A program made the position numbers and the translations under genes. Below the pieces are notes generated by a model, which saw only the letters and a list, made by a program, of their open reading frames with translations, searched no databases and was not told where the DNA came from. Positions 3,323-64,000 of a DNA stretch of 64,000 nt are shown here, in pieces. How positions within the stretch are numbered: position 1 is the first letter of the stretch; every line of letters begins with the position of its first letter. Origin of the DNA: Euglena gracilis (Eukaryota); assembly GCA_039621445.1 (NCBI GenBank), contig CP154954.1:46417847-46481846 (forward strand), written 5' to 3'.

Positions 3323-3363
<41 letters not shown>

Positions 3364-12262: not shown

Positions 12263-12300
<38 letters not shown>

Positions 12301-33681: not shown

Positions 33682-33717
<36 letters not shown>

Positions 33718-36755: not shown

Positions 36756-36826
<71 letters not shown>

Positions 36827-39274
36827 GGGCGGGGGGGACCCCCCATCCCCCCGGTCTCAAAAAAACCCCTGGTTAGAACTCAGTGCTTGCTCAAACAATG
36901 ATTTGACCCCCCCTGCTGTTGGAGCGGTCGCAGCGCAGCCACCACCCCTCTGTCACCCCAGTGGCCACATTTGTGAGGCTGGCGGCGTACCCCTCCCTGG
37001 AGACGCTGTACGCTGCCATCGCCCTCCCGGACTTTTCCTTCAGGGGAACAAGCATGAGTTGCCGGTCCCGTAGAAGTTGCGGTGTAGTTTCCATTTTGGT
37101 ACCCTGCCTGACAATTGATGGGTTGCACGTCACCTTGAGCTGCACTTCTGGATTTTTCTTGTCTTTTCTGGGTTTGTCCAGAAGTGAAGGAGGGGTTCAA
37201 GGCTTTTAAGTTTGGAGGTTTGTGGAAATTTTGAATTTGGGGGTTATTGACCCAGGGCTTTAAAAAAAATATGTTTGAAGTATCCATGGTTGTTGGAGAG
37301 GACAATTATTTGGTAACCCCCCCCCCCATTTAAACCGACTCCCCTTCTAAACCGACCTACCCTTCCAAACCGACCCATTGCAGAATTTCAACCAAAAAAG
37401 GCAAGTTGGATGACAAACATGCACAACGTAATGGAAGCCGCCAACGAAAAGAGGGTCCATGCTCATTGAATAGTTAGTATTGATGACCCAAAATTGGGAT
37501 TTTACACCCAAAGTTAGGCATTTGTTTCCAAATTTTGGAGTTTGCATCTCAAATTGGGCATTTTCCTCCGAAAATTTGGCGTTGGCACCCAAACATTACA
37601 AAATTAGGCATTTGCTGTCTAAAATTTGAAGTTTGCACCCAAAATTAGGCAGTTTGCCACCAAAAATTGGATATTACACCCATAATTCAGCATTTGCCCC
37701 CAAAAATTAAGAATTTGCATCCCAAATTAGGCATTTGTCACTCAAAGTTAGGAATTGGCCGATCAAATTGGGCATTTGCCAATTTAAATTGCCTTGCTAA
37801 CATCAACCCGCTTCCGTCACGCCGTCGGCCAGCCGTGTGCTGCCCCTGAAACCGACCCCCCGTCTAAACCGATCCCCTCCAGGATTTCCACCAACCCAAA
37901 AGTCCTAAACCGACGGGTCGGTTTAAATGGGGCGGGTTTACCCAACCCCTGGATGGTTTCTGTCCATCCAACCCCCCAGTCCCCCAACTCAAATTTTTGT
38001 TTATTGTGGGTTGTTTCTAATAAAATTGCCCTGCAGAGTGATGAGTTTTTCACTGCAGAGTGATGAGTATCTGACCTCTTTCACTCTCCAAACTGCCTTG
38101 TCTGCGGCAGCAGGGGTGGCTGGTGCTTGACAATAGCATTTGTTTGGAATATGGCGAATGCTCAAACAATTGCACCTCCCATGGACATAATATGGAGCCA
38201 ATTTGCTCAGTAAAATACGTACTCATTGCAAGCCAAGGATGTCTTTCATTGGGCATTGTAGTCAGATGCTGGCTCTGGTGGTGAGGGAACAATGGTTGTC
38301 CACCGCTGCTGCCGCTGGATCAGGCGATCGCCGATTGCGCAGTGACATGTTGGGGCATTCACCCATCCCCTTCTGAGCCGCACTCTGCTTGGAGGGTGGC
38401 AGGGACAAGTTTTGAGCTCCAATTGGCTTCCAGCCACAGCCTCCTGTCCGCGCAGCAGAAGAAAGGCAGTCCGTGGTCGACGGCCCATCCAACGCAACGG
38501 CTTTGGAAGGCACCCTGAAGACCACGCCCACCACGTCCTGTTGCTGCAAGTGATGACCCGTGACGGCGTGTACAGCCCTCAGGTGTGCGTGCATGCGTGT
38601 GCAAGTGTGTGTGTGTGTGTGGCAGGGAATTTCTTAAGCCGGAGGGTACCCTACCCCCCGGGGGGGGGTCCAGCCAGCCAGCAGCCCAAATCCAGCCAGC
38701 AGCCCAAATTCGGGCTGGGAGCCCCCCCCCCCCGGGGGGTCGAGTGAAATAAAGTTGGGTCCAGCCCGGCCGGAGGCCGGGCCAGCCGGCCGCAGGCCGG
38801 CCAGCCAATTGGGCTACCCAGCTCACCTGTCCCTTCATTTTTTCCCTTCATCACCCAGCCTTGACCTGGCTCCACCCATCAAAATGTCGAAAATGGCAAA
38901 AATGTGTTAGAAAATTTTGTTTTTCGTCGACCCGGCCCAGCCCAGCCCCCTCCAGCCCCGGACCCCCCCTCCCCCCCCCACCCCCCCCGGGTGTGGCCTA
39001 GGGGGGGGGGGTGGTAGTGGGCCGACGTTAGGTCGGCCCCCGGTCGCCAAAGGTCGCCAAAGGTCGCTATGGGTGTTTCCTACTCAGTTTTCTTTTGCAT
39101 TGTAGCAGCGTAGGCAACTGTTCGGCGGCCCTAAAAAAAAATCCCTTGAAATCCAGCCAGCAGCCTTTTTGCCAGCCGGAGGCTGGACCCCCCCCCCCGG
39201 GGGGGTCCTTAAGAAATTCCCTGGTGTGTGGTGTGGTGCGTGTGTGTGTGGGGTGGGGTGGGGTGGTGTGGTGT

Positions 39275-39323
<49 letters not shown>

Positions 39324-43167: not shown

Positions 43168-44462
43168 GTGATGGGGCCAGGGCTTCACTTCCCTTCACTC
43201 ACCCCCTCCCCCCCCCCCCCGGGTGGCGTCGTCCGGGAAAGCGTGTGTTTGGGGGTTTCAGCTGGGGGATTGCCCGCCAAGCGCAAAGGTCCCGCATAAT
43301 GCAGGGAACCCGGAATTATTTGGTGTATGGTGTGCATTTGAAAGAAGGAAGTATTCGTGAAAAAAAAAGCAGAGACCCCAAATAGAGACCCTAAAGCACA
43401 TGCACACACATGTGCTTTGGCAGGCAGGCGGGCGGGTGGGTAGGCGGTGCTTGAAGAGAGGGTTCTGTGACCCCAACGATGGCCACGATTATTTCAAGCG
43501 GGTCTGCAGCATTTCTCATGTCACAAGCCACCTGCGGCCTGAATGATTTTCTGTTTGATTGCTACCGATGATGGTTTTTTGTCTGTGTTAGCATGCCCTT
43601 GCCTGCTGCGTCTTTGGCCAGCCAGGTGTCCTTCCTGCACCTCACCCCCGAGTTTTCTTGGTTGCATTTGCTTCATTTGCTGGACCAAATGGTGTGATTT
43701 TTACCCTGATTTTTGCGTTTTTTTTCTGCAAGTGGTTACATGAGACAATTTAGTTGAAGTCTTAAGCTTTGCTGCTTTTTTTAACCCAGCTAGAGGGCTT
43801 AGCCCAGAGTTCATTCTAAAAGGTGAGTCCTCGGCAGCTTCAGATGCTGATTAGAGAGCTTATTCTTTCTGTCCCACAGCAACCCAGCGAATCCCAACAA
43901 AAAAAATATTGTTGCATTGTTTACATCACGGCGCAGTGTCTGTAAATGCACGGAATATTTTCTTCGCATTTCCTTTTCATTTTCATCTGGTCCCAAAGTT
44001 TGCAATTGTTTTGTGCAACCTTTGATTTTTTGGGGAAAGGTCTAAACATTTCCCACCAATGGTTTAAAAGTTTCTGTGCATGAATCCAGAGCAAAGACAT
44101 TCAAGGTTCATAATGCAGGGCATATTATCATTCAGTCACTGGCCGACCCCCCCCTGGTTTTCAGACCCGTTTCACCCCCCCAGGTGGGTCATCAATAAAC
44201 TGCCAAAGTGAACTGGCGCCGAAGGTACAAAAAAATTCTGGTAAATTCTTCCCTCCCGGAAGCCCCAGGAGTGGTCACACTAGTTTTCCAAAGAAACAGT
44301 GGCCGAATGGCTTTGAGAAGAGTGGGCGTGACCCCAAGGTTGTTTTTTTCATAGTGGTCAAGATTCGTTGATTTCGAGGCTTCTTTTTCCCAGCGACCCG
44401 GGCCTGCGGCCCCCAGAACTGAACCGGTCCCCCCAGGAGGGGTGGGCCCGGGGACCCGGCCC

Positions 44463-44573
44463 GGGAAAAAATGTGTTTATTTTCTCATACCAGAGCCTTC
44501 TTTTAACTTGGAAGACCCCGGGGGGTCTTCCAAGTTAAAAGAAGCCTGGTACGAGAAAATAAACCCTTTTTCC
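44463..44573. repeat. ~110-bp near-perfect palindrome (fold-back)
   Basis: tttattttctcatacc..cttcttttaacttggaagacccc / ggggtcttccaagttaaaagaag..ggtacgagaaaataaa. Confidence 0.9.
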
Positions 44574-46862
44574 TTGGGAAATGAAGACGTACTTTCAGTG
44601 ATCGAAGTGATGCCTAGGGGGGGGTGACAACAACTCCGAATTGAGATGTATTTGGGCAACTCCAGGGATGCACGAGAAGTTTTTCGGTTTTGAGGTCAGT
44701 GGTCCTGGTCACCCCTCATTCCTGGGGGTCAAGGTGGGCAGTGGAGCGGAATACGGACCCCCTCCCAGATGTTATTAGGTTGGTCGGGCCCACCCGTCCC
44801 TCCTAAGAAGAAAACTAAAGCCATGAAATATTTTCTTCCGCTGTTGAGCGTCAGAGATGGGTTGTGGAAATCGCAATTCTTTTCAGGTTTTTCACATCAC
44901 CTTCAAATTTCGCTTATTTGCTCATTGCATATTCTGTGGCAATTAAAATTATGTTTTGTGAATTTTCAATGTTTTATCCTTCTTTGTCTTTTCTTGGGGC
45001 TGATTTCATTTTTTCCAATAATATTTTTTAAACATATATGCGAATTTTTTGCTTTTTTTTTCAGTTGTTCATGAGCTCCCAGGGGATTTTTCTCTGCAGA
45101 AAAACGTAATCTGGGTGATTTTTTTGCAAAGAAGTTTTTGAAAAAGACGGTTGCTTTTCGGCATACGATGTGTTTTCAAAAATGAAAATTTGAAGGAAAA
45201 AACAGTGTATAATATATCTCTCTGTGTCGTTTTTTTTTCCCCCAAAAGGAGTGAGACAGAGAGGGTTTTTTTTGGAAAAGAAGTGCTTTTTGAAAATATT
45301 TCTTCGCCATATTTGGCAAAAACCACGTGAAAAATTGCAGATTATTTTTTGTTTAATTTTTTTGGAATTAAATGCAAAGCCTATTCCTCCAAAATCATTT
45401 TTTTCAGTTTCCCATTTTTTTGTTTGCTTGTTTTTTGTCGACGTTTGAAAACAGTTATTCAAATCCAATGCATCCATAATTTTCGTCAGCCCCATTTTTG
45501 AAAGAGCGATAAGAAGTAGGAGGAGCAGGAATGAAACGAATTTTTTTGTTTTAATATTTTAGGGAAAAATATATGTCAATTATTTTTTGCTACAATTCTA
45601 CAGCAAACAGTGTGGGAAAAAGGGTAGGTGAATTTGTGTAATTGTATCTTTTTTGGTGACCAACAATTTTGGTATTCTTTCCAAACTGAATTGCCGCTGG
45701 GTTTCTTGTTTGTGTTTAGTATCATCATGTTTCCCTGGAGAAAAATGAGGGGGGGAAGTGCATAGCATAGCAGTTTTCGGTAATTTCTCAAGAAAATCAG
45801 GGTTCTTCCAACAAATTCTCGCATTTATTTTCAATTTCGGCTGGCTCTTAACAGTTTTGAGGGGGGGGGTCAAAGATGGGCCTCCGATTCCCCCACCCCC
45901 TTTGTGTTTTTGTCTGGGAGGGGGTTCAAACCCCTCCTCTGGTTTCCCTTATTATCCCTGACCCCCCCACAAAAGTTCTGTTCATGTCAGCAGGCTCTAT
46001 TTATTCTGATCTTTCAGAATATTGTGTCCAAAATGTGTAAGTTCCTCAGGGCAAGGAATCCCTTAATCTGGAACCCGGGGCGTCCAGTAGCTTTTTTTCC
46101 CCCCGCCAACACCTTCCAGCTGGGCTGTGGACCCCCCCCCCCAGGGTGGTCTTTCCACCCCGGCGAGTCTGGTCTTTCCAGCCCGGCGAAGCCAGGCTGG
46201 ACTGACAAAATTTCGGCCCAAAGCAAAAATAGGTTTGAATAAAGGTTTCAAGGTGAGTATCCAAAATTTCGCTGAAAATGCCAACAAGCTGGGTTTGGGC
46301 TTTTTTGAAAGTTTTTGGGCACCAGCTGTGCCCAGCCCAGTATTTGGTTGGACCAGACGCCCCATCCCTAGTGGGGAGGAGGCCCAGCCAGCAACTGGCT
46401 GGACACCCCTCTTTAAATGGAACGACACTTCCAGCCATATGGGCTCCCTTTCCCTTAGTCATTGCTGCCTTTCCAACCCCCACCCCCTCAGTTGGACAGA
46501 CCCCCTTCGGAAAGAAAGCATGTGACGACGACACAAAAGAGCGTTCAAGCTGTGTTTGCTTCTGAAAAATTCACGTGTGGATCCATGTATGCCGCCGAGT
46601 AGGGAGTTTCTCAAGGACCCCTGCCTGCCATACTGTTTGGGAGGGGTTCAAAAAAAATCCCGTGATATTATATTTGACGAATTTCTGTCACCTTCCCCGA
46701 CGTGATTATCGTTGAAATGTCCGTGCGCCAACAGCAATGCTAAAAATGCACCGGTGAGCCACCGGTTTTGCAAACTTTCACCCATTTCCAAACGTGTGCC
46801 TCCGTGTGTTTTTTCCCCTTTGTGTGGCCCCCAAGAGTTTATCTTTCGTCTTTCGCCCACAG

Positions 46863-49800
46863 GTGCCCTGCAAAGCTGAAGCTGCGCACCTCACAAATGG
46901 ACATCTTCTGCTGCCCCTTGCTGGCCGCCGAGACCGTCCGGGAGGCAAAACTGCAGGCGGTGGTGGTGGCGGCGGCCACCAACGTGCGCAGTGGGCAGCC
47001 AGCCATTGCAAAAGCCGAGGCGACGAAGGACCTGACATCGGACGAGAGAAATCACACGTTGCGGGGGTGGTCAGACTCGATGTTCAGCAGCACGTCTGAG
47101 GTGTTTTACGACCTGCGCCGGCGGGGTCTGCCGGAGCAGAGAATCATTTCATTACTGCCGGGCCTGCAGCCGAGGCTTGTCAAGAACTATTTCGCCCGGC
47201 GGGGCGCTGGAAAGAAGGTCCAGAAGCCTGTGGTGTCCGCACGCTCCCGGGCATTCGCCTTGGGCCTCTTCAGCCAGTATTGGGCCCGATGGATGGACGG
47301 TGAGCTGCAGCGCGACCAGTGCTTTCTGCAGAATCAAAATGTCTTGATTGGAACCTCCTGCCACTCCTGCCTATGGGAAAATACAATGTGTTCAGGTTAT
47401 GGCTAGTATTTGGTCAGAAGTAAGGCCGAAGTCGGGCCGGAATTTCAGCCTAACTTAGTCCTAAATCCCCATAAACAATCGTGACCTTGCCCCATTCTTA
47501 ACGCTGACCCTAACCCCAACCAGGGCGGTCCATAAGGGACGGATTTTTTGTTTAAGGACCGCCGTGTTAGGACCGCCCTTGGGCATAAGAGCCGGTCGAT
47601 GGTCCAGGGCTCGAATGGGGGCAAATATTGAAAGGTTGAAAAACGCGTTCATTGACGCTTTGGGTGAATGAGCAATGGTCCAAGATATCATACCAAGATA
47701 CCAGAAATCATTTTTTCCCCCTCGAAGTCCACCCATTTTATCCAAAACATGACCAGTTTTCCAGTGGATTTTTCATCGAATGTGCTGGGATGGGAATGGT
47801 CTCATGATTAAACTAAGTTAAGGACCGCCTTAACCTACCCCGATTCTACACATAATCAAATAACTGCCCCTCCCACGCCCCAAGGTGGCTTGGGGAACCA
47901 AGGGAAATGCAATAAAGCTCAGTCGGCCGAAGGTCCTGTTGGACAAACCAGTTGGACCTGGGAAGCTCCAATTAAACCCCACCCCCCACTTATTACCCCC
48001 CCCCACTTACAAACCCCCCCCACTTACCAGGTTTGAGCTCTAGTAGTTCTGAGCTCTTAACGGGACTTGCATGTAATGGAAGGCCGAAAAGACCATCATT
48101 GCAAATTTCGTGTAAGTTGTAAATTGTAAATTACGCGAACTTACAGCCTTGCAATTTACAATGACTTTCGGTGATTTTACGGGAATTTCTGAAATGTTAA
48201 TGAAATGTTTACCTCCCCATACACCCCACACCCGTTTTATTGGTTTTTTTTCCCGGATTTTGACCCATTTTCGACCCGAACTCTACAGGTTTCGGGCAAA
48301 AACACGGCGCTGGGGGGGGTCGAAGACAGCTCATTTTCGGCGCAAAAACAGTTTTTTCCGCATCCGTGAGGCCAAAAAAAACATGGCTTTGGGCATTTTT
48401 TTTGATTTTTTCGACTTTTTTGACCCGGTTTTGACCCAAAATCAATGGGTTGGCGGCCCAAAACGGGAGGCTAGCCGGTCGAAAAACGCTCATTTTCGGC
48501 TCAAGAACAGTTTTTCCGGGTCCGGGAGGCCAAAAAACATCGTTTCGGGCAAAAAAATTCGATTTTTTTTGACCCCAAAATCACCCTAAGCCCATTGGTT
48601 TTCGGCCAAAAACAGGGGTCTGGGGGGGGGGGTCGAAAAATGCTCATTTTCGGCTCAAAAACACTTTTTGGGGGTCCGGGAGGCCAAAAAAAACATGCTT
48701 CTGGGCAAAAAAAAATTCGAGAAATTTTGAGAACATTCATTTTTTGACCCCTCCCCCCCCCCGAAAACGGCCAAGTCGGCCAGTGGGGAAAGTGCACAGA
48801 ACGGCCATGTTGGCCGAAAAACGACCGTATCTCGGACTGGGCGGGGAGTTGTGGGGATGTCAAAATACCGGTAGATGGGGCATTCCAAGGGCTTCAATTT
48901 AGGTCTCCGGATACTTCCTTTGATTTTGCATCATTTTCGAGATATTTTGAAAATTGATTTTTTTTGGCCCGAAATGGCAGAGTCCAAAGGGGGGGGGGGG
49001 GCTTAAAAAAAGGGGGGCGGGCCAATCCTACCCGGTTTGGACCCCTTCGCACGTGAATAACTCAGGCCTGGTGGGGAGTTCGGGATCAAATCCAGGTGAT
49101 TCGGAAACTAGAAAGCCAGTCGCTCGTGACTGGAAAAAAAATTCCGGGAACCAGGCCGGGATCATGTGATAATCCGTCGGTTCTCCTGGTGGCCCCGACA
49201 CGGGGGGGGGGTCGATGGGGGGTTTTCGCCAGGAGGAAGCTTCGCTCTACCCATAAAGGGATAAGAGCTCAGCGATAAACCCCCTGGGCCGACCAACCAA
49301 ACTGGATCCTATAACCCCCCCCCCCCAGGAAGAAAAATGGAAATCGCCGGGAACGATTTTTTTCGATCGCCCGGGAACTGATTTTTGGCTATTTTTTGAG
49401 ACCGATCATCATCAAAAATGTCATTTTTGACTAAATTTGCCGAAAACTGACAATTTGGGGGTGTTTCGGGGTCATTTTGGGGGGGTCGGATTTTCACCAA
49501 CAATTCCGGATCCCATAACCCCCCCCCCCCCACCTATAAAACCCCCCACCCCCTTCGGCCGACCAATCAACCCGGATCTTATGAACCCCGGGGGTTTATA
49601 AGTAGGGGGGTTTAAACCCCCCCCCAAATATGAGACACCGGTGTCTTATATTTGGGTGTCAACCAATTTCGCCAAAGGGTGCCTTATATTTGGGTTTCAG
49701 GTGGATGACTGAGGGGTGTGTAATATTTGGACATTTTTCCAGCAAGTATGTTGTTGTGCTAATGTCCTCGTACCTTCACATATATTTGTACATACATGTA

Positions 49801-52800
49801 TACATACATTGTCTGAACGGCGTTCATCACCACTTGCAGATTGGTCGCTTTCTTGTTGTTCAGTTGCTTCTGACCAAACACCTGTGATGGATTCCAAATT
49901 TTAGTCCGCTGTCGGACTTGCTGCTCCACACTCACTGTGGAAAGCCTTTCATTAGGGGGGGGGTGTCTGAAATTTGGAGAAGTAGGTGCCAGCCCAGGGG
50001 TGTCTTATATATGGGGGGTGTCTTATATTTGGGGGGGTTAGTATATTACGCGAAAGATTATATCATGTTTGGTTGGCTGCGGCCGGCCAGCCATGGCCGA
50101 CCGCATGCAACCAAGCAATTTCATCTCAACTCACTGGTTTGATTTTTGATCGGCTGGCCTTGGCCGGCCCTTTTCCCAAACAGCAGATCGTCACATCTCT
50201 CACATCTCGCTTCGGCTGCAGCTGGTTGCACTCAGCCACAGCTCCAATCAGTTATTGGAAAAAATCAAAAATTGATGACGGTGTTTGAAGAAAGCAGTGT
50301 GAATTGTAAAACAGGGTCTATCTGCCAGATGACTCCCCAAGGCCACCGAGTCATCCAAAGGGCCCAATAAAAAGAATTCAAGCCCGTGCAACGCTTTATC
50401 CCATGGTACCTGGCTTTCTGGTACCTTCTCGGCTGGCAAAAGTTACGCCCTAAATCCGCAGCCTCGTTTTTTTTGACGCGTTTTCTGCCAGTTTCAGCCC
50501 GTTTGGGCCAAAATTTTTTTCATAATACCTTGAAAATGAAAAAACCAAACAATTGTGAAATCAAACAAAGCTCTGAGAACGCTTTATCTAACTGTATTTC
50601 GGTTTTCCTATAGCTCTTACCTCGTCCCATTTCCGGCCGTTTTTTGGGCACAAAAAATTGCCGATTGCGAAATGCCAAAATTCTCAATAATGAAGCAAAA
50701 TCAAACAAAATGGCCAGAAATCCGAATTGAAGCCCTTAAAAGGCCTTATCTAACAGTATTTTTATTTCCCCGCAACTCCCTGCCTAGCACGAGATATGGC
50801 CAATTTACGGCCCAAATCAGCGCTGCAGGCTTTTGCTTCTGCTGTTTTCTGCCATTTTGGGTTCAAAAAATTGATTTTTCCATTAAAATGGTGTCCCGGA
50901 CCCCCACCCCACCCACCCACGAGGAGTCCAGCCAGCACTTTTTTCCTGCTGGCTTGTGCCCCCCCCCCCTCCCACTGGGATCTTTAAGAAACCCCTGATT
51001 GTGGCCGTTGCGCACAGGTTACTCATTGCGCATGTGAGACATGGACATTCAAATAGCAGATGTATATGAATATATGTCCTGTGGGAGGTGGCGGATTGAA
51101 GATAATAATGAAAGGGGTTTGAGCAGCGCAGTGTCCAGAAGCTGGATTAGCGGTTTTGAAGTATTTGGGCACTTGGGAGGGAGGGGTGTCCCAATGGGCG
51201 GTGGGTCTGTCTGGTGGGTTGCAAACCAAAACCAAATGTGTCAGTATGTCCGCTTTTCTCTGCCATCGTTAATTCAATTTCATTTTTTTGTTTTCTCAAT
51301 TCCGAACGCTCACCCAAAGTTATGTGCTTCAAATCCAGGGAGAGAAAAGGGGGGGGTGACGAGCTTCTTTAAATCACGTTTTGGGTCCCCAAAAGTTTTT
51401 CCTTGGCTTCGATTTCAAGGGTTTGTTTGCGACCAAGCACCTCCGATGATGCTGGCGATGCTGATTTTCTGGACACCAGAGGTGGAGTTCCAATACTGGA
51501 GACAATGCTGGACGGTGCTGGCGGGTTTTTTTTTTTGCATATTTAGAACAATTAACCCATATTTAGGATTAATGAGCAACCATTTCCCACAATTATTTTC
51601 CCCCATTTGGCCTTGCCCATTGGGGCCATTATTTCTGTATGTGATAATTTAGGTAAATATTGGGATGATTGGGATCAATATGAACAAGTTCATGGCATTT
51701 GAGGCTGGTTTATCCCATTTTTGTAATTTGGGGTCATGTTTTTGCAATCGTTGTGGGTATTGTTGGCCATTTTGGGTCATTTTGGCCGCTTGGGGGATTT
51801 TTTGTGGTCAATTTGGCTGCTTTGGGAGCTAGTGGATGCACACGTTGAAGTGGATGCAGTGGATGCAGACGTTGTTGTCGTTGGAAGTACTGGATCTGGA
51901 ATTACTGGAGTGCACAGGGGCGTTTGTAGCCTCGAGAGCATCCACTCCAGTGTCATGCATTCTGGTGCTGCTAATTGAATGGATAGCGTTTGGTCAACAC
52001 ACAAAAAGGGGTGACACAGAGGGGTCGTATGCCAAAAAGTTTTGCTGCCTTCGGTTCCCTGCTTGATGTTCCTGGGTCTCATGATAAATGCGTGCATGTA
52101 CGTAGGAAGAGGCTCTAGAGCCTCCTCGAAAGACCTCTAACGACGTATGAGGCTTAGAGTCTTCTGGAACGACGGTCAAGGCGGATCTAGAGCCTGCTCG
52201 AGCGTCGTTCAAGGACGTTTGTGGAGGCTCTAGAGTACCCGGACCATTGGTGTGAGATGATATTCAAGTGGTTATGTTGCACATCTGCACAACGGCCACG
52301 CGGATTTATATTTCTTTTTAAATTACATGTCCATTGCATATTTTTGCAATAAAAAAAAACTAAATCTAAATTTTAAATCTTAAATCTAAAAATCCAAATT
52401 TTCAATCTAAATCAACGTGCCTTCTTTTAAAAAAAAAAGTTTGCACCTTCCAAGGGGGTGGGTGCTATGTGCAGGCAACAGGGATTTTTTTTTAAGTTTT
52501 GGACCCCTGGGGGGGGGTCCCGGCCGAGCCCCCCCCCCCCAGGTCAGGTCGAGTGGGTCCCCTGCCCACTTGACCACTGGGGTTTGCTTCTATTTTTCGG
52601 CACGAAGCGACAAGATTTTTTTTGACCCCCCACCCCCAAATGGGCCCCCAGGGGGTGGGTGGGTGGGTCCGGACCCCCCCTCCCCCCGAGTCCTTAAAAA
52701 ACCCCTAGCAGGCAGTGGGGCATTTACAACCCCGGGGGGGGGGGGGGGCGGGTTTTGGGGTGGGTTGCGCTCTACATAGCACACACACCCCGGCGATGAA

Positions 52801-55800
52801 GGGTCCGAACATGGCCATTTAAAAAAAAAATTGGCTTGGCATCGGAACCCAAACCAATCCCGGCAGGGTGGGGGCTACTATGGGCAGGCACTCCATAGCA
52901 CAAGGCTTCTCCTGTCCCAGAGGGTGCCCTGTAGGTCGTGGAGTCGTGGAGCCATTGTTCCGTCCCACGCTGGCTTGTTTGTGGGGCTTTTATTCAGCCC
53001 CCTCCCCTCCCCCACCCCCCCCCCCCGGGAGCCCGGGAGGGTGACGCAGAGCTCGTATTGCACCGCACAGACAAGAGTGGTCCTCCCCCGGGGTTGGCAA
53101 AAAGGTCTGGCGCTTCTTGCACAGATACACAACAAAAAATAAATTTAAATATGAAGGTTTGTAGCTATTGCGCAAATGCAATGTGATTTTGGGCAATGAT
53201 CACCCACATTTAGAATTTCACCTTATTAAAAACATTTTGCAAATGCACAATATTTCTAATTTTGCAATTAATGTTTTCCATTGCGCAAGGATCCCTTCAA
53301 TGGAGTCCACTCATTTCATTATCCAGCGCTTTCAGGTTCATGCGCAATGGACCTTGGGAGACCCGTACCCGCAGACCGCAAAGTTCCAAGTTGTTGCTTT
53401 CATGCCAGGCTGTGGGGGCGTCCAGACATACCAATGTGGATTTTCCTGGACCTCGCAACTCGGGATTGGGAGAGTGAAAAAAAAATTGGAGGCTGCGCAT
53501 TTGCGCAGCGCCCTAGTGATTTCCAACATCAAGTATGACTTGAGCGCTTAAGCAGCAGCCATAAACGGGTTGGACCCCACAAGGGGGACAGTGAGACCTA
53601 CCTGAGTGACGAAGTGGGACCAAGATCCACACCCAGGCTGCCACCGCCCTGCTACCCAGAGATGACCCCAGGATTCATAGTGTCCACACAGGATATCACA
53701 GGGTTGGTAGTTGGGGATAGGGTCAGGGCTTGGAATAGGGTTAGGGTAACACTAACATTTTGGGCTGAATTTGGGCAGTTTTGTGTATTTTCGGCCTGAA
53801 AAAGGTTCGAAGTCAGGCCTATATTTTTGCCTGGTTCAGTCCTAAGTTTGGTTTTAAGCCAAATCCGAACCCTAAACCCTAACCTCATCGATGACTCAAA
53901 CTTCCCAGGTTTCTGCGGGGGAAAAAACAAAATCGACGGTTTTTCCATGACCAAATAAAAAAGTGCAAGTTGACGGCTTTACAATGATGTAGCTAGTCCA
54001 ATCCCCTTGGCAGACTAGTGGGATCACCAGGGGCGATCCCACCAATTTATGGCTGCAATTTATGTGCATGGTACAACCTAACCAACCTTTTCATATGAGA
54101 ACCTGGCTGGTTTTTTTCAAAGTGGAAAGTGACCCCTCAGGATGACTGGAAATAATTGTTTGGTAGGAAGTGACGGTAGGATTTCCATAGGCACATAAAG
54201 TCTCTCGTTTTGGGGGGGGGGGGCATTTGGTTCAAAGATCAGAAAGGCCTGTCAGGGAATATGGGCTCAACCTAAAAGGAACGGTGGAGTACCCTCTGGC
54301 CCAGCCCCAGTCGCTGCGGTACTTGGCCCCCATCCCCTACATCACCCCCGCCACTCCGGAGGAGGGCCACCTTGAGGCCCTCGTCCGGTGCATCGCCGAC
54401 CGCCTTCAGGAGGAGGGCTGGCTCGACCTGGACAAGCTTTGGCCAACGGCGCAGACACTGTGCAGCGAGAAGAAACGTATCACTCACCTCGTCCGTGACA
54501 TCTTCCAGCGGGCCTTCTGCAGCTACGCCCAGGCTGTGCACGGATACCATATGTGTGGCAGCCTGGCCCCGACGCGTTCACGGCGGAGGAGGACCAGACC
54601 ATTGTCAGTGCTGTGGAATTGCAGAGTAGACCGATCGACTGGAAGACGGTCGCGGCGCTGCTGCCCCACCGTACCGCTGTAGTGGTGAAAGACCGATATA
54701 AGGTGTTGTGTCGCAGCTTGGCCAGCATGACCTATGGCAAGGCAGCGTCGTTTCCAGATGAGACGCTGTGGCGGCAGCAGCTGCTGCGGGGCTTCTTCTT
54801 CCGCCACCGCGTGCCGGTGAACCACCCATATTGGGCGGACCTGCTGGGTGCCGATGTCGGCCCTGTTATTTGCCGGCTCCCATTAACAGACGCTGATAAC
54901 GGTGCAGTCGATGAGAAGCCTCTGGTGATGATGACTGTTTCCTCCACAGGGGCTTCATTTTGTATGTTTTTTTTTCCATTTAATTTTCATTTTTATTGAA
55001 AATGCGAGCGCTTTTGTAGGTGTATTGAGGACAGCACAAACCATGAAGCTTTTCACATGGAGTTCCAGTTCAGCAGTCTGGTGGGTCAAAGTGGTCAAAA
55101 TGGTTCAAAAAAATTTTTTAAGGGAAGCCTGAAAATTTATGAGACAAAGCGCCGAGAATTTTTAAAAAAGTATCCTCTGATCAAAATGATAAGAGGATAT
55201 ATTTGCAAGGGGGAGGGGGCCAGACCCCCCCCCCATGGGGGAGGGGGTCGGACCCCTTTTCGGACGGGGGGGGGGGGTACGGAACCCCCCGGAAACCCAA
55301 TAATTTTTCCGGCCCCAAAAATTTTTCCGGCGCAAAGCGCCAGAAATTTTTTTGCACAGGGGGAAGGTGGTTCCGACCCCCAGGGGTGGGTTAGGGGGTT
55401 TGCCAATCCAAGAAAAAATAGCCAGCTTTATTTTATGGCAGGGATATTTTTTGTACAATTTTCTTGTACAAGGGGATTTTTTCCCCAAAGGGGCAATTTT
55501 CTCCATGTAATTTTTCACTCATTCTTCAGATTTGTCAGTCTTGTTTCATTCTTTTTGATTCAGAGATTTTTTCTTTTCTTTTCTTCATTCGATGGATACG
55601 CAAAAATGCTCAAATTAGTCTTTTTCCCCCATGTTTTCACGTTTTTATCTTTAGAGAAAGGCTCCTCCCAGGAGAGTCGATTTCACACCAGCAACCTTTT
55701 GGCATACAGATGACAGTGGGCGTATCCTTCTTTGAGCCTGGCAAGGAAGCCCCCACCCAACGTGAAGCTGGAAGAAGACGCTGTGCACAAAACCGTCCGC

Positions 55801-58797
55801 ACTGCCCGCCGCGTGAGTGGTGACCGGAAGGGCAAGCGCAAGGCCAGGGTGGGTTGGGGGGCAGCTTTGGAGCGTCACATTCGCACCTTGCATCGTTGGG
55901 CTTTTGCCCACGTGGCAGTGTCAGTTTGCCTCCCGCAGGCCAACAGGCACAAGGATTTCTGCAGTTTTCATTCTAACCCCGATTCTCAGCATATCATATT
56001 TCGCATTTGAATGTGATCTCTATCATACCATTGCTTAACAACTGTCCCACCCCTGGGGGGGATTGACTGGTTTTCTGGCCAAGACCCCCCCTCCAGGGGG
56101 TGGAGTAGGCCCGAAAATGAAAAAGTGACTGGCCTGTGCCGAAGGATTTTTTGGTGTTTTTTTCTTAGACTGTTTGGCAAAAATGTTCACTGCCTCCTCC
56201 TCATTCAAAACTCTTTCACCCAGGCATTATCTCTTCACAACGAGGGACAAGTACGCCTGTGAGTGTGGGATGTTCATCCTAAACACAAAGAATGGAATTT
56301 GAAGTCACTTGCAAGGCGAGTCACGCAAAAATACCACGAAGGCAAACAATTCCAAACGGCTTCCGTGAAGGTTCCCTTTGCTTTTTGTAAGGATTTTGCC
56401 TTTTGAGACATTTGTGGTTCTGAGAGATGTTTCTGATTCAAGCAATGCAGCAACAGGAAGCAAAATGGCATCTGGAAGCGCTTTGTGCCTTGCCAACATA
56501 AGCGCATTCGAGAGTGGCCGATCCCCCCCCCCCCCGGGAAAAAGTGATTGACTGGTTTTTCCAGAGTAGAAAGTGACCCCCCTCCCCCCCCCCCTGGGGG
56601 TCGCCAAGCAGTGGTATGATCTTCATTCCTTCCAGAAAGGTACAGTGTCCAAATAAGCACCCTAATCCCTGGAAGTTTGAAGATGTGTTTGTAATGTAAT
56701 TCCCGAATAATTTAATTCCCGAATTATTATTGAAAAGTTTGCCAACGTTTGCGTTGTTAAGGCAAAAGTGGCACCTGAAACAATTGTGCTTTTGCGCAGG
56801 GGGGGGGAAATGCAACTTGCATACTTTGCATTTTTTTGCATAATCGGCTTTTCCCGAAATTTGCATTTTTTTGCATTTTTTTGCATTTTTTTGCATAAAA
56901 TATTTTGCCCTGGAAAAAATTTTTTGTAGTTGGTTGCCATATGTTTGGATTTTTTTGCATTTTTTTGCATTTTTTTGCATAAAATATTTTGCCCTGGATT
57001 TTTTTTTCAATTTTAGGCAGCAAAGCTCTGTTATATTCCAGCTTTTTCTCAGGTTTTTCATGCAAGTTGCATTTTTTTTTGCATTTTTTTGCATTTTTTT
57101 GCATTTTTTTGACTTGCATAATTTGAAGGGCCAAGTTGCATTTCCCCCCCCCCCTGTTTTGCGGAATTTTTCGGGCCTACCTACCGCCTTTGGAGACTTT
57201 CAACGCCGCTTCAACCACAAATCCCAGCATGGGAGCACTCAAATTCACCGTAATTGATTGCACAATCAGTTGCAAATGGATGTGAACAAAATCGAATCTG
57301 CGTTTGCAGAATTGTGTGCCCGGTGCACGGGTGTTCAGAAATCAATGTTTGCCTGGTTGTACAATGATATAAGGCCTGGTTAGTTGCACATTTGAAGGCT
57401 CACTGGTTTTTGGAGGGCAATTGTTGCTCTTTCTGGGCTCATCCCCCTCGATTCCCATCATTTTTGGTTTTTAAGCGCTAACCTTGGACAACTTCGCATT
57501 GTGCCAGCTTCCAGTGCACTCATCTTTCATGGTGCCCCAAACTTTGGAACAATTTGTGTTATTTTGCAACTTCCGTCGATAGAAGGCCATCAACCAGGAG
57601 GCCAAGGAGTAAGACAAATCACTTTAATTGCCCAGAGAAGAGAAAAGGCAATAGTTTCCTCCTGCAAAAAACCTCTGCAAAATGGCTTCTGCACCCTGCT
57701 GGTTGGATAAGCAAGCTTGTTTTGAGTCGATTGAGGGTGCGCAGGCAATGCTGTTCTTAAAATCCCATCCTCTCCATCTGCCCTTCGTATATTCTCTTTT
57801 TTTGCATCACACCCAAACACGGCATTCCTCACACGTTTGGGACACACATATGGAACCTCCGGATCCCTGCCACGCTGCCACGCCAGGCTTCAGTTGGCGG
57901 TTGCAGAGTCCCGCCTGCCACCCCTCGGGGGGAAGTCCCCCACCCACCCTGCGAGCGGTGCCGCCCCCCGCCCCCAGCCCCGAGCCGGAGGAGAGCCCCA
58001 CACCCTCCAGTGTGAGGGAGCCGGCGGGGCGACAGCCGGAGGAGGAGGAGGAAGGGGGCGTGGAGGAGTGGCGGCGGCTGCTGGCGGAGTACGAGGCGGC
58101 GGAGGAAGCCCGGCAGTCACGTATGCATGAGTGTGTTGTGAGGAATCAGCTGGATGTGTTACCCCAAACGCAACGCCACTGCTCGGCAGGTTTGAAAGGT
58201 CATTGCAGTCTGGTGATATCTCATGCGGGGGTTGAACACAATTTGGCATAACAAATTTGAGCGGGAATGCAGTGATATTTTTGGAGGGTTTGCTCAATGT
58301 ATTTTTTCCAATATGCAACTATTTTCGATGCTTTCTCAGGCTTTTATTTATCAGAGCCAGGGGTTATTTTAGTTGTGGACCCCCAGAAGGGGAGGGAGGG
58401 TAGGGTGCATGGGTCCGGCCGCCCCCCCCCCCTGGGGGGTTCCCCCAGGGGCCGGTGGTATGCTTTTCGGCGCGAAAGCTGAAATTTTTTGAAAATGGTG
58501 CTATTTTTGGCATTTTCGCGATTTTGGCCATTTTCGGGGAAATGGAGTGGGTCCCCCCGGGACCCCCCCCCAGAGGGACCCCCCAGGAGGTGGGTGGGTG
58601 GGGGCCCCCCTCCCCCCCCCAGTTTTAAAAAAAACCCTGATGAGAGCACCAATTGCTTGAGGGTGTTTCAGGATTCTGGCTTTTTTTTTGCTGCAGAATT
58701 TTTCATTGCACAATTTCAAAGCATGAAGCCCCCCCCCTCGTATGAGGAATTACATGAAGTTCAGGAAGGTGAAGAATTGTGGATGAAGTGGTCTGAG
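46863..58797 (+). CDS. Multi-exon gene encoding a Myb/SANT-domain protein (3' end unresolved)
   Basis: Exons 46863-47313, 54257-54526, 54571-54924, 55717-55848, 57907-58120, 58340-58354, 58645-58662, 58697-58797 join in frame. FTAEEDQTIVSAVELQSRPIDWKTVAALLPHRTAVVVKDRYKVL (54577-54710) fits the Myb repeat pattern. Confidence 0.75.
47973..49614. mobile_element. TA-flanked pogo-like MITE interrupted by a Helitron
   Basis: taaacccc..cactta / tataagtaggggggttta ends; repeated cact(t)ataaaccc motif. Confidence 0.65.
48027..49275 (-). mobile_element. Solo non-autonomous Helitron, same family as the last array unit
   Basis: Minus strand reads ggtttA|TCgctgagctctta...aagagctcag...aaacCTGG|Taagtg: TC start, CTRR end, A|T target, no duplication. 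The empty site rebuilds the host motif cacttataaacccc. Colinear with 14109-16876 but with few 163-bp repeats. Confidence 0.85.
49613..50040. mobile_element. TA-flanked pogo-like MITE (GTGTCTTATATT motifs)
   Basis: taaaccccccccc aaatatgagacacc / ggtgtcttatatttgggggggtta; shares its left TA with the previous MITE. Confidence 0.75.
51001..52299. mobile_element. TIR element with GTGGCCGTTG ends, unclassified
   Basis: gtggccgttgcgcaca / tctgcacaacggccac inverted ends; duplication unclear. Confidence 0.55.
52479..52707. mobile_element. hAT-like MITE
   Basis: cagggattttt...aaaaaccccta; duplication gcaggcaa/gcaggcag. Confidence 0.8.
54527..54570 (+). other. 44-nt non-conventional hairpin intron
   Basis: TAC|gcc CAGGCTG tgcacggataccatatgtgtgg CAGCCTG gcccc|GAC; removal repairs the frameshift between ORFs 54227 and 54553. 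Confidence 0.85.
56797..57156. mobile_element. hAT-like MITE with TTTTTGCA internal repeats
   Basis: TIR cag(g)n-aaatgcaacttg / caagttgcattt-(c)n-tg; ttttgcg duplicated on both flanks. Confidence 0.85.
58358..58639. mobile_element. hAT-like MITE inside a coding exon; predicted non-conventional intron 58355-58644
   Basis: cagggg...ccctg; duplication atcagagc/atgagagc; homologous to 36529-36871. Excision by the N3/N5 rule gives RQSR-FYLS|EHQLLE in frame. Confidence 0.75.
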
Positions 58798-58804
58798 GTT
58801 CGTG

Positions 58805-59190
58805 TAACCCTTGGACCCGAACCGACCGACACCCAAAGTTAAGCAACCCCCAAATTTCAGCAACCCCCGGGACCAATGAAAGTTCCGAATTTAAGTAACC
58901 CTGATATTGAGGGGAAAGAAGGGAAAATGCAGGCAAATATGAAAGTGAAGCAAGGATACATCTCGTAAAGGTTTTGCAGGCCCCTCCCTGCTAGCCCTGT
59001 TAGGCAGCCTCTTTTTGCCTCCTCAGAAGAGACAGTTTTTTTCTGTTGACCATTTAGTCCGAATTTAAGCAACCCCTCGGTGTGTCTTGTGAAACCCAGG
59101 TTTCAGCAACCCCAAATTTAAGCAACCCCTTGGGCGGATCGACTGAAATCCAAATTTAAGCAACGAGTTGCTTAAATTGGGGGGGGGGTA
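58805..59190. mobile_element. Probable pogo-like MITE (TAAGCAAC motifs)
   Basis: Repeated aatttaagcaaccc; right end gttgcttaaattgggggggggg-TA; left end less clear. Confidence 0.5.
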
Positions 59191-59191
59191 C

Positions 59192-60188
59192 CAGACATTC
59201 ATTTAGTGTGGTACACCGAGGTAGTCATTTTGTGGTTCACTGTGGACACCAAAAAATTTTTTCGTGGTTCACGTATGGACACCAAAAATTTTTTTGTGGT
59301 TCACCTCTGGGCAACAAAAAAAAGTTTGTGGTTCACATGTTTGCTGCGGCAAAAACTCGTTTGTGTGCCGCGTGCACCGCGTAAAAAATTTTGTGCCGTG
59401 GCAAACTTCGCCATGGCGCACTGAGTGAAAGTCTGAATCCAATGTTGTGGCGCCATGAATCTTTTTTTTAACAAGAGGGATTTGACGGTTGGGGGACGTT
59501 TCCATTCATCACCGTGGATGCATAGCACGAATGGCGATTCCCCAAGGAGTTCGGCATTTGATTGAGGAGGCCAAAAAATGATTGGGTCCACATCCTCCAC
59601 CGTGAAATTGGCCGTGATTCCTCAGACGCCGGTTCGGGTGTGAACCTGGAGTCCCCTAGAAACGATTTCAAAAACTGTGTCCCAGGCACTGGCTTCACGC
59701 CCGAACCGGCGTCTGGGACAGAGTTCTCAATATAGTAGTGGTGGACTAACCCGAGCCCTCTCAATTGACCCTAGGGTATGGGTGCAACACACCCCAGCCC
59801 TAACCCTAGCAGGGGGGGCATTGGCACACGTACCATCCAGTGCGCGTTCATGCGTTGTACGTACGCCTCAAGGGGGGACGTCAGGTTGTCCGGCTGGGAG
59901 CAACCCTACATGTAATGGGGCTCTGCATGTGCGGTATGAGGGAGTGGCGACCCTCCTCCAACCACAGCGGTGGGAAGTGATTCCCTGCCACGCTTTACGG
60001 ATTGAGCCGAGGTTAAGGTCCACAATGTGGCTGAGGTGTCTACACATCAATCAAAAAAATTTGTGGACACCGAATATTTTTTTGTGGTTCACCTGTGGAC
60101 ATCAAAAAATTTTTGTGGTTCACCTGTGGACACCAAAAAAAAATTGTGGTTCACACGTCTTTTGTGAACCACACTAAATGAATGTCTG
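59192..60188. mobile_element. hAT-like non-autonomous element
   Basis: Perfect 21-bp TIR cagacattcatttagtgtggt / accacactaaatgaatgtctg; duplication gggggtac/gggggtag; subterminal tgtggttcac repeats. Confidence 0.9.
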
Positions 60189-60193
60189 GGGGG

Positions 60194-60378
60194 TAGCTCC
60201 CCCCCCCCTTGTCATTGACACGGCGTGTCGTTGACACACCCCCCGTGTCAACGACACTTTTCTGGAACATTACCTATTGAATCACAGTGACATTGACATG
60301 GCGTGTCGTTGACACACCCCCCGTGTCAACGTCACTCTCCTGGAACATTGGCGTGTCAACGACAAGGGGGGGGGGGTA
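60194..60378. mobile_element. TA-flanked pogo-like MITE (GTCGTTGACAC motifs)
   Basis: (c)n-ttgtcattgacacg / cgtgtcaacgacaa-(g)n-TA. Confidence 0.75.
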
Positions 60379-60658
60379 GTGACTGACTGGTTTTCTAGAA
60401 AATAAAATGTGGCTGGTTTCTGGAAGAGTGGAAGTCAGCCCCCCCAGAAAGAATTGTATGGGTGTGTCCCCCACATGTGCAGATGCGCATGATTGTGCCG
60501 TGTGATGTGAATGTGTCGTTCCGGGCTGCATTTTTCAGTCATGGACGGGGTTTGTTTCTTCGTTGCAATCTTTTGCTAAGTGCACATGGGCTGTCTAAGG
60601 TTTTTAATATTGACATTTGCCTTGGGCCTTTTCTTGGCCAAACTTCATCCTATTGCCA

Positions 60659-63600
60659 TTAGGCGGCCGAATTCGCACTTAAGGATTTAACTTTTTATTT
60701 GCGCACTTGCGCAAATTTCTGATTTTTTTAGTTCTTTTTTGATTCGGTTGTATGACCCCGGGAGGGTTTGAAAACACGTTGACAAGAGCGTGCAAAAAAT
60801 GAGCAAAATTCTGTTTTTGGCGGTGTGACCCCAGGGACTTTGGCGAAAAATGGTGTTTTTGGGGAGTCCGAAAATGGACTTTGTATGTCGAAACCCCCAG
60901 GACCTTGCCGGCCAAAAGGGAAAAAAAAATGCTAAAAAGCAGCACAGGAACGGGACCTTTACTGTCCTTGTTGTTTCTTTCGGCTGTGTCCCCGGGTGTG
61001 CCCGAGCTGCCGGCGGTGTGCGTCCTGGGTGTTTGTTTTGCCGGACTGCTTTGTTTGCGACGCCTTGGTGTGGTGTTTTTGGGCTGTTTGTTAAAGCGTG
61101 GGGAGGAGGTGCCGGGGGGTGTGGGTGCGGTGTGACCAAGCGGGAAGGCGCAGTGAGAGGAAGGCAAGTGTGAGGTGTTGGGCAAGGGAAGCACAGGGGG
61201 GAAGAAATTGGGTCCGCAGGGAATGAAAGGGACGGGTGTCTCCCACCCGGCTTATGCCTGGGATCTGTACAACCAGTTGTGTGGCAAAGAACCCAGCGGA
61301 AGAAGCCAAACACTGGAAGGACAAAATTGTGTTTATTTGTGCAAATGCGCGCACCAAGATGTTTAGGTTTATTTGCGCATTCGCGCAAATAAACATAAAC
61401 ATGTCCTTCAAGGATTGGGCTTTGGTACCCATGAACTGACGCTGTTGATGAACGGCGTGACAAAGGAGCTGTGGGTGTGCAGACCAACGGGCCGTCCAGT
61501 TGGTGGGTTTGTCACACTGTTTGTCGACGGCGTCAGCTTCTGGGCGCAAATGCGCGCACAAAAAAAATTATGTTTATACGCGCATTTGCGCAAATGCGCA
61601 AACAAACATGTCCTTTGTTCATTTGCGCAAATGCGCAAATAAACACAGAGAAGAACGGTGTGACAGAAACATGACCTTCAAACACCAGCAGCAGATGTGG
61701 TTTATTTGCGCATTTGCGCACATCACATTGTTTGTGGGCGCAAATCGCCAAATAAACTGCGTGAAGAAACTGCACAATTTATATCTGGTTTATTTGCGCA
61801 TTTGCGCAAATAAACCACGTGATGCGCGCAAATGCACAAATAAACAACCAGTGGAGGAGTAAAAAGCGACTTCATTTGGCCCTCCTTCTGCCACCCGTAG
61901 TGGCTTCTGAATGGGTTCAACCCAAATGACCACACCGTCTCCTCCGGCACATGGTGTTATGGTTCCTTTTTTGAACCATTGGCAGGTCCCACAAAAGATG
62001 GAGACAGCGGATCTCCTGAAGATGGGTGCGCAGCCACCCAGTAGCAGTGCACGTCCACCGGCACCAATTTTTGGGTCCCAAGGGCCCTGCCACTGGCCCG
62101 CGGCCTCGGCTCCGCTGCTGCAGCCACATCAGCTGCTGATGCTTCAGCACCCACCAGACCGGCATCCACCTCCCCGGTGCAACAACACCCAGATTTAGCG
62201 GCCACGTTATACCCCACAACCGGGGCGTGAGACTGGGGTATGACGTGGTGCCAGTGCATGGCAACCAGCAGCCGGAGAAAGGTAGCCCTCAAACACCCGT
62301 CATTTTGGGTACAAGGAATTGTTGAATCTTTACCACTGGATTGGGCGCATCACACCTGTGGGACTCACTCCCCCCAAATTATGCACAAAAACTGGTGTGT
62401 TTTACGTATTTTAAGGAAATTGCTGGAGAAAAACCAGAAAACGGACTCCGGCCTGACACATCCGGGGTATTTCAGGTGCCAAATTTTGACTTCTTGTAAC
62501 GCAGTACAGTTGCAGAAAAGGTGTCGAACAGTCACAGGTCGTTTGCACGTAATCAAATCATGATGTTTAACTGCCAAACAGATGACGCCAAAGGAACAGG
62601 CCGTGTGGGCCAGGTCACAGCAGTACAAATGTACACACATAAGCCAGGCAAATTTTGGCCAGTGAGATGCCGTGTTCCAGCGAGCATTACACACTGCCTC
62701 TCACCACAAATTTCATCGCCATGTAATCGTGGTCAATGGTTGGCGTGTGGAATTGCGTTCGCCAGCCGTCACAAAGGAGGAGATGTTATTGCAAAACTGA
62801 TGTGTGTTGGTGCCCGCATTTGCGCAAATAAACAAACTTTGTTTGTGTGTAAGGCTTGCCGAAACGCATCTTTTGAAGCGGTTTATTAATTGTTTATTTG
62901 CGCATTTGCGCAAATGCGCGCACAAACGTAATTGTGTTTATTTGCGCAATTGCGCCCACCAAACCTCGTACGGTCATGGTCCTCATTGGTGTCTTTTAAC
63001 ATGAAAAAAAATACATGTTTATTTGTGCATCTGCACAAATAAACATAACTTTGTTGGTGTGCGCATTTGCGCAAATGCGCACACCAACAAATTTGTTTGT
63101 GGGCGCATTGGCGCCCACAAACACGCCATTTTAACGTCGTGTTTACGTTTTATTAGCGCAGATGCGCCCACAAACACAATTGTTCTTATTTGCGCAAATG
63201 CGCCCACAAACACACATCAGTTGTGTGATGGCTGGCTGACGTAGTCTGTCGGTGTGTGTGATCTAATGAGGCTCAGTGTGTTCTTATCGGCGGTGGCAGT
63301 ATCACAGTCAGTTCAGCCAGCACGTCAGCACCATTTCCAAGTGTCGTAACAAGGGGTGTGTGCCTCTCTCCTGTTTGACATACAACAGCACAAGTCTCAC
63401 CCTCTGCCCTATTTGCGTCAATTGGTAAATAACATTTACACCAAACTACTGGGAGTTAATACCCTCCAATAGAGGGTTGTAACCAGGCTGTATTTTAGTC
63501 GGGTGCCGACCCCACCCCGGGGGGGGGGGGGTGCCTGCCTGGGCAGGCACCCCAAGGCACTCCAAATCCGACCCCCCCGGGGGGGGGGGGGGTAGGGCAC

Positions 63601-63931
63601 ACGGCCAAAAGTGCCCTAGCACAACCCCGGCGCCGAAGGCGCCGAGGAGCCAAAAATGGCCTATTTTCAAAGGAATGTGCCCGGGCACAGGCCGAAATCC
63701 GACCCCCCCCCCCCGGGGGGGGTAGTGCCTGCCTGGGCAGGCACTCACAGGCACTCCGGACCCCCCCTCCCCCCGCCCGGGTTTGGTAAAAAAACAGCCT
63801 GGTTGTAACGGTTCATAAATTGTATTCCGTGTGACAGGGTACAGAGCCCAGGAATTTCGTAGAATTTGCGCATTTGCGCAACTGTGCAAATTCTAAAGAA
63901 AAACCCTTAAGTGCGAATTCGGCCGCCTAAG
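60659..63931. mobile_element. Unclassified TIR element ((C)TTAG termini, 5-bp duplication) with dispersed TTTGCGCANNTGCGCAAA palindromes
   Basis: Perfect 26-bp TIR ttaggcggccgaattcgcacttaagg / ccttaagtgcgaattcggccgcctaa; tgcca on both flanks (left terminal C missing); roughly 18 palindrome copies. Confidence 0.85.
63484..63801. mobile_element. hAT-like MITE, CAGGCTG family, nested in the previous element
   Basis: caggctg / cagcctg; perfect 8-bp duplication gttgtaac; homologous to 28139-28441. Confidence 0.92.
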
Positions 63932-64000
63932 TGCCACCGACCACCCAGGCGGTGCAACCTGTCAGGGGACTACGAGATCCTTCTCTCCAGGGTTGGAAAA

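Follow-up and report, generated by a model that had tools for sequence, protein, structure and literature searches.

The 64,000-nucleotide window analyzed here (Euglena gracilis, GenBank assembly GCA_039621445.1, contig CP154954.1, positions 46,417,847 to 46,481,846 of the forward strand; coordinates below count from its first letter) contains, downstream of a GC-rich open frame and 3.6 kb downstream of a Myb DNA-binding domain, a 282-bp element that starts with CAG and ends with CTG (hereinafter element A; Table 1). An earlier sequence-only reading had taken this element for a young, hAT-like MITE (miniature inverted-repeat transposable element) that splits a small exon of a Myb gene and is at the same time exactly a non-conventional intron of the euglenid type. 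We find that element A is one of at least nine CAG-starting elements with an 8-bp duplication in the 64-kb window (the least certain of them being that at 30501-31937), and that it fits the published code for non-conventional introns exactly. Its identification as a non-autonomous cut-and-paste DNA transposon, probably hAT-like and generating 8-bp target duplications, is supported by its structure, flanking repeat and relatives; the proposal that it lies in a coding exon lacks support and is probably incorrect.

Element A begins with CAGGGGTTATTTT and ends with AAAAAAAACCCTG (in longer terminal stretches, 5′ CAGGGGTTATTTTAG and 3′ TTAAAAAAAACCCTG), its interior contains long G and C runs, and its ungapped terminal inverted repeat is paired at 11/13 positions. 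The two 8-mers that flank it are identical at 7/8 positions, and the next 6 nt outward agree at 1/6, which sets the length of the flanking repeat at exactly 8; the claimed 8-bp duplication thus stands as to its length, but it is not a perfect one. The sister copy reported at 36529-36871 (copy B) is real and aligns to element A with 73.2% identity over 261 columns (blastn E 1.6e-33). A third family member (copy C), absent from the sequence-only reading, ends in CTA in place of CTG. The family profile matches element A with an E-value of 5e-79 (nhmmer), and the profile built from the three copies recovered no fourth full family-1 copy in the window. With family copies only ~73% identical, each having one mismatch in its flanking repeat, and with further mismatches in the inverted repeat of element A, its description as young is not borne out.

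Across the window, CAG stands at the start of 9/9 such elements and CTG at the end of 8/9, with an inverted repeat that takes in the CA/TG and is paired at 10-13/13 positions in the eight elements other than A. Family 1, to which element A belongs, has three full copies and family 2 has two (28139 and 63484). The 8-bp repeats abut CAG..CTG termini more often than by chance. A wide scan of the window took in CDG...CH'G pairs that are separated by 40-2500 nt and whose ungapped inverted repeat reaches 10/13 or better; it gave 1170 candidates, whose abutting 8-mers showed from 0 to 8 identities in 106, 425, 283, 215, 99, 25, 9, 5 and 3 cases, respectively. The 8 of these 1170 that reach at least 7/8 (starts at 26853, 28139, 30501, 36529, 38623, 58358, 59192 and 63484) are every one CAG...CTG pairs, and 20 dinucleotide shuffles put through the same scan yielded no more than one such case apiece, 3 altogether. 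When CDG..CH'G pairs served for the offset control, tandem repeats at 4.7-9.4 kb inflated the counts, and a table of CAG..CTG pairs only was used instead. With the flanks at offset (0,0), 8/264 of these pairs are identical at 7/8 positions or more, whereas every one of 48 shifted flank positions gives just 0-2. The element at 38623-39223 sits within a GT microsatellite, and its 8/8 flank match is consequently weaker evidence.

Evidence of a different kind comes from read mapping over 44001-64000, for which four runs were used: X1 and X2, which are contigs and only guessed to be RNA; X4, which is raw RNA-seq (~5% read); and X3, which is DNA-like. A joint from 63474 to 63801, found in one contig each of X3 and X1, skips 326 nt (318+8), and the 8 letters fit either side. 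Since the same form occurs in the DNA-like X3, the X1 contig is not readable as splicing, and the joint is the precise empty site of the family-2 element 63484-63801 in other copies of the high-copy surrounding repeat. An empty site, which the sequence-only reading had suggested looking for in related strains, was thus seen for a relative of element A; for element A itself, X3 holds the filled 5′ junction (58117-58510), and no empty site was seen among the 15 of 1153 joints listed. Several CAG..CTG families with 8-bp flanking repeats, together with the empty site of a relative, are the ground on which we take element A for a transposon. None of the ORFs of the larger elements in the window belongs to a Pfam family (0/8), so all the elements here appear to be non-autonomous.

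The termini of hAT elements typically start with CAG or TAG. Of the earlier designation 'hAT-like MITE', the MITE part is well matched by the 8-bp repeat, the inverted repeat and the multiple copies, while membership in the hAT superfamily is an assignment by structure, to which the 8-bp repeat and the CAG termini point. Mobilization by Merlin or by another non-hAT transposase is an unlikely alternative: two Merlin families of E. gracilis, each with 8-bp duplications, are described in PMC8101967, and the length of the duplication at element A fits the criteria for Merlin MITEs (8-9 bp), but the Merlin termini given there end in 5′-GG, whereas all nine elements of the window start with CAG and 8/9 end in CTG. 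Repair of a double-strand break can likewise leave short direct repeats around captured filler DNA, and it is how the authors of PMC4770533 read the 8-nt direct repeats at a newly gained gapC intron. As an origin for element A we regard it as highly improbable, given that this insert is one of several family members that have kept their termini and sit at unrelated sites, that a CAG start with repeats of exactly 8 bp is common to nine elements, and that a relative has a precise empty site.

Three side observations concern these elements. Families 1 and 2 have in common a GGCGCC-GAA-GGCGCC-like palindrome and AAAATGG(C/T)..ATTTT(C/T) motifs (58470-58540, 36640-36710, 28270-28330 and 63630-63680), which suggests one wider element group. 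After the right repeat of 28139-28441, the stretch 28450-28475 (CAGGCTTCTGTTTAGTAAC) resembles the 5′ end of another such element. Within 59192-60188, joints that skip 852 nt (59252 to 60105 in X1 and X2; 59258 to 60111 in X3) may reflect either shorter versions of the element or slippage at an internal repeat.

The code for the non-conventional introns of Euglena was defined through knock-in experiments as 5'-N3CDG-/-CH'GN5-6^R, where ^ is the 3′ boundary (Nomura et al., 2025; PMC12501133). As stated there, the 5′ spacer has strictly 3 nt and the 3′ spacer 5 (6 being tolerated), a purine opens the next exon, and pairing behind the CAG/CTG is required; fully synthetic introns built on this code get removed from a foreign exon. 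On the + strand element A reads AGC-CAG...CTG-ATGAG^A, an exact fit in which the next base (58645) is A, and on the - strand it reads CAT-CAG...CTG-GCTCT^G, which also fits. The unit that the published code delimits is therefore 58355-58644, the very segment whose removal the sequence-only reading had proposed, and the sequence bears out that its removal leaves one copy of the 8-mer: the spacers of 3 and 5 nt add up to 8, the length of the one duplication copy that would go out with the element. The further claim that the element is removable in either orientation is upheld as regards code fit on both strands, with actual removal being a prediction. In Euglena, non-conventional splicing makes its cuts 3 nt ahead of CAG and 5 nt beyond CTG; RNA of either strand of element A would be a predicted substrate, and excision of 58355-58644 would restore the exact pre-insertion sequence.

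The proposed exon is a different matter, in that frame, intron length, composition and protein searches all fail to support it. In full, the proposal has element A splitting a 33-nt micro-exon (58340-58354 + 58645-58662) of the Myb gene, with the conventional introns 58121-58339 and 58663-58696 leaving first and the non-conventional 58355-58644 thereafter. This order agrees with what is described for E. gracilis, where conventional introns leave before non-conventional ones (PMC6221363); moreover, CTTTCTCAG ends at 58339 and a GT opens at 58663, and the resulting chain is phase-consistent with an exact code fit. However, it demands a GT-AG intron of 34 nt, while 41 nt is the minimum among 11,527 such introns of E. 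gracilis (mean 512 nt; PMC11170887, Table 1), and if non-conventional excision is the only event and the 34-nt segment is retained, the frame meets a stop after 32 codons. The open, phase-consistent frame itself (RQSR-FYLS-E-HQLLE-E-FFIAQ) does exist, as had been claimed, but it does not discriminate. The mini-exon (15 + 18 = 33 nt, or 11 codons) is a multiple of three, the frame survives its skipping, and a single intron 58121-58696 keeps the frame equally well (RQS-Q-FFIAQ). An open frame across the excision junction was rejected as a test of coding, as every phase is open there (26-46 codons upstream, 4-65 downstream). Among these, phase 0 is the longest once 58355-58644 is removed (46 codons upstream and 65 downstream), which might favor an exon of greater length in a different frame (e.g., 58287-58354 + 58645-58797), one that would need no 34-nt intron and likewise keeps the frame from 58120; yet its acceptor (TTTTTGGAG, ending at 58286) is poor, its composition is non-coding (GC 0.43-0.44) and its downstream part found no homologue in the protein search, and we consider this version very unlikely.

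Composition tells against coding sequence around element A more generally. The Myb exons have a GC content of 0.60-0.63 and a GC content at third codon positions (GC3) of 0.76-0.83, whereas the flanks of element A have a GC content of 0.33-0.44, the two in-frame parts of the mini-exon 0.08 and 0.47 (with GC3 3/9), the candidate intron 58121-58696 0.43-0.44, and the putative exon 58699-58797 0.43 (GC3 0.485). GC lies at 0.43-0.48 across the whole of 58121-59191, with the proposed introns in the same range, and there is no exon/intron contrast. The GC-rich upstream frame (57865-58120) covers a stretch that lacks stops in several frames of either strand.

The sole relative of the upstream frame among 1.8 billion representatives searched is P0001, a genomic read-through ORF of a 1042-bp contig, which differs from it at 7 of 65 'exon' residues (92-156) and at 1 of the next 15 'intron' residues. 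A whole-library search with 57655-58251 retrieved P0001 and two matches at E ~1e-3, and a search of 57865-58119 against longer proteins for a transcript-derived protein retrieved only P0001. No protein with the downstream 'exon' (58483-58842, residues 68-119) was found among proteins of near length. Apart from the genomic read-through ORF, neither flanking 'exon' occurs in any protein of the 90% and 50% identity libraries. Scans of metagenomes with the protein and with a 28-base flank gave no match. Over the upstream frame (bin 57341-58007) the read depth is close to zero, at 0 in X1, 1.83 in X2 and 0.17/0.03 in X4. As a separate observation on X4, 125 of its reads (46 + 79) join the G/C homopolymer tracts at 52734 and 56577, on opposite strands and with homopolymer loose ends, which looks like a poly-G/C artefact.

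As to the gene that the exon was assigned to, the PF00249 domain is the only evidence for a 'Myb gene', and the 3.6 kb between this domain and element A contain repeats, with nothing linking the two. Taken with the intron length, the undiscriminating frame, the GC3 and the protein searches, this renders the micro-exon improbable, and element A is probably not an early-stage case of a non-conventional intron arising in an exon. We lean instead, though not strongly, toward element A sitting in an intron or in other non-coding DNA. It would have inserted in AT-rich, compositionally non-coding DNA just downstream of the GC-rich open frame, and its likeliest setting would be a conventional GT-AG intron, 58121-58696, or else a stretch that is absent from mature mRNA.

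Several results weigh against parts of this interpretation. The minimum-free-energy fold of element A closes with UUAUCAG/CUGAUGA, one register outward of the predicted terminal stem, and its stability is not above that of shuffles (z -1.73). A 3′ splice-site-like CTTTCTCAG is present at 58331-58339 together with the phase-consistent chain given above, and the GC3 of the mini-exon, computed on 33 nt, is a weak test. The mapped reads, swamped by repeats, have no joint at 58120, 58354 or 58662 among the 15 of 1153 listed, which favors neither the single intron nor the micro-exon. No transposase was found in the window on examining the 8 ORFs of the larger elements, and the 8-bp repeat and CAG termini are the whole basis of the hAT assignment.

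Table 1. Features of the window discussed in the text, with flanking 8-mers given as left/right.
Feature	Coordinates	Strand	Basis and remarks
MITE copy A (element A), family 1, 282 bp, CAG...CTG termini	58358-58639	.	inverted repeat and family profile
Left copy of 8-bp flanking repeat of element A, ATCAGAGC	58350-58357	.	
Right copy of 8-bp flanking repeat of element A, ATGAGAGC	58640-58647	.	
Predicted non-conventional excision unit, N3 + element + N5, 290 nt	58355-58644	+	published code; predicted
MITE copy B, family 1	36529-36871	.	flanks GTTAGAAT/GTTAGAAC
MITE copy C, family 1, 3′ end CTA not CTG	52479-52707	.	flanks GCAGGCAA/GCAGGCAG
Family-2 MITE, CAGGCTGTATTTTAGT...AAAAAAACAGCCTG, perfect 8-bp repeat GTTGTAAC	63484-63801	.	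empty site in DNA-like run
Family-2 MITE	28139-28441	.	flanks GCACAGAA/GCACAGAG
1072-bp CAG..CTG element, perfect 8-bp repeat CCCCTCTG	26853-27924	.	ORFs without Pfam family
601-bp CAG..CTG element, inverted repeat 16/16	38623-39223	.	flanks GTGTGTGG/GTGTGTGG
997-bp CAG..CTG element, inverted repeat ~21 nt	59192-60188	.	flanks GGGGGTAC/GGGGGTAG; no Pfam family
1437-bp CAG..CTG pair, weak inverted repeat (10/13)	30501-31937	.	flanks TGTCGCTC/TGTCGCCC
GC-rich open frame, upstream exon of the sequence-only reading (…AEEARQSR)	57865-58120	+	GC 0.75, GC3 0.835
Candidate GT...AG intron containing the MITE, 576 nt	58121-58696	+	GTATGC at 58121, T9GCTGCAG ending 58696
34-nt GT..AG intron needed by the sequence-only reading	58663-58696	+	under published minimum
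Myb DNA-binding domain PF00249	54574-54702	+	E 3.7e-08, 33.8 bits, cut-off 24.4
44-nt candidate non-conventional intron, gcc-CAGGCTG...CAGCCTG-gcccc^G	54527-54570	+	frames and code

A further candidate for a non-conventional intron lies in the Myb gene itself. Its two open frames overlap at 54499-54682, and removal of the 44-nt segment 54527-54570 joins them in phase (…FCSY^DAFTAEEDQ…). The segment fits the code perfectly, the 7 nt at either end are those with which the family-2 MITEs begin and end, and by frame and code it is likely a true non-conventional intron. A search with 54260-54526 against longer proteins gave no match. Elsewhere in the window, ~2000-17000 is occupied by long repeat arrays with periods of ~1 kb and ~160 bp, which have a poly-G/poly-C tract per unit and very high depth in many runs, and microsatellites, comprising a (CATA)-like array and GT/GTG arrays, are found at 33650-34000, 38600-38630 and 39200-39830.

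Element A shares with the euglenid non-conventional introns, as characterized in PMC12501133, the CAG 3 nt inside the 5′ border, the CTG followed by five nt, the purine next to it and an inverted repeat that could pair behind CAG/CTG; those introns, however, lie between coding exons and leave the RNA, while the surroundings of element A look non-coding. With the MITEs of the hAT superfamily (e.g., the Ds-like elements of plants) it has in common the 8-bp duplication, short, imperfect inverted repeats starting with CAG, the non-coding content, several diverged copies and the empty site of a relative, but it differs in that no transposase partner was found in this window and in being assigned by structure. 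The introners of Micromonas and Aureococcus (Huff et al., 2016, as reviewed in PMC11282704) are alike in that transposon ends together with a target duplication make up the removable unit, and in that insertion into exons is tolerated. They rely on the spliceosome, GT/AG and a 3-bp duplication, whereas for element A an apparently non-spliceosomal cut, measured from the stem at 3 and 5 nt, would use up exactly one 8-bp duplication. The gapC intron 4 of E. agilis ACOI 323 (PMC4770533) looks as a newly inserted copy of such an element would; it is shown to lie in a coding gene and to be absent from other strains, and the account of it, in the part available, proposes break repair and not transposition and reports no repeat family.

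These comparisons bear on a wider idea contained in the sequence-only reading, namely that the splice rule is the geometric image of a hAT insertion. The geometry fits, and the idea gains indirect support, although the exon that was to exemplify it here is unsupported. In our formulation, the cut rule (3 nt ahead of CAG, 5 nt beyond CTG) would mirror in RNA the way in which one transposon type inserts, namely CAG...CTG elements with an 8-bp target duplication, so that excision would give back the mRNA exactly as it was before the insertion, and most non-conventional introns would descend from such MITEs, a proposition for and against which we see the scales as evenly balanced. As part of the same reading, and on an equally even footing, the families of this window would be a source of non-conventional introns, and the excised circle would consist of the element plus one copy of the duplication.

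The equation of the 3+5 spacers with the 8-bp target duplication is supported indirectly by published introns. The strain-specific, recently gained gapC intron of E. agilis has eight-nt direct repeats (PMC4770533), and one tubB intron is described as having 'as many as nine positions' (PMC3935182), nine being the number that an 8-nt repeat gives. Both junctions of the non-conventional introns show pyrimidine^purine, with a C at intron +3 (PMC11170887) and at downstream exon +3 (PMC3935182); a consensus common to both junctions would follow from an 8-bp target present in two copies, so far as we can infer. A MITE origin of these introns has been in print since 2014, in a paper stating that euglenids had no known transposon at the time (PMC3935182), and a 2024 review treats CAG/CTG as an inverted repeat and notes duplication-like repeats at the junctions (PMC11282704). 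Annotated non-conventional introns number ~16,000 in E. gracilis and ~466,000 in E. agilis. In the papers of 2018, 2024 and 2025, as far as their available parts go, the origin of the introns is still 'unknown' or a suggestion. Among the main texts of open-access papers we found none in which hAT is mentioned for the introns of Euglena or the 3-nt and 5-nt spacers are set equal to a duplication of 8 bp, and the explicit 3+5=8 form of the idea looks unpublished. Under it, mRNA after splicing and an allele with an empty site have the same letters, and DNA controls are needed to tell them apart. With concrete element families that have the right termini and an 8-bp duplication now in hand, the hypothesis of a MITE origin for the non-conventional introns of Euglena becomes testable genome-wide.

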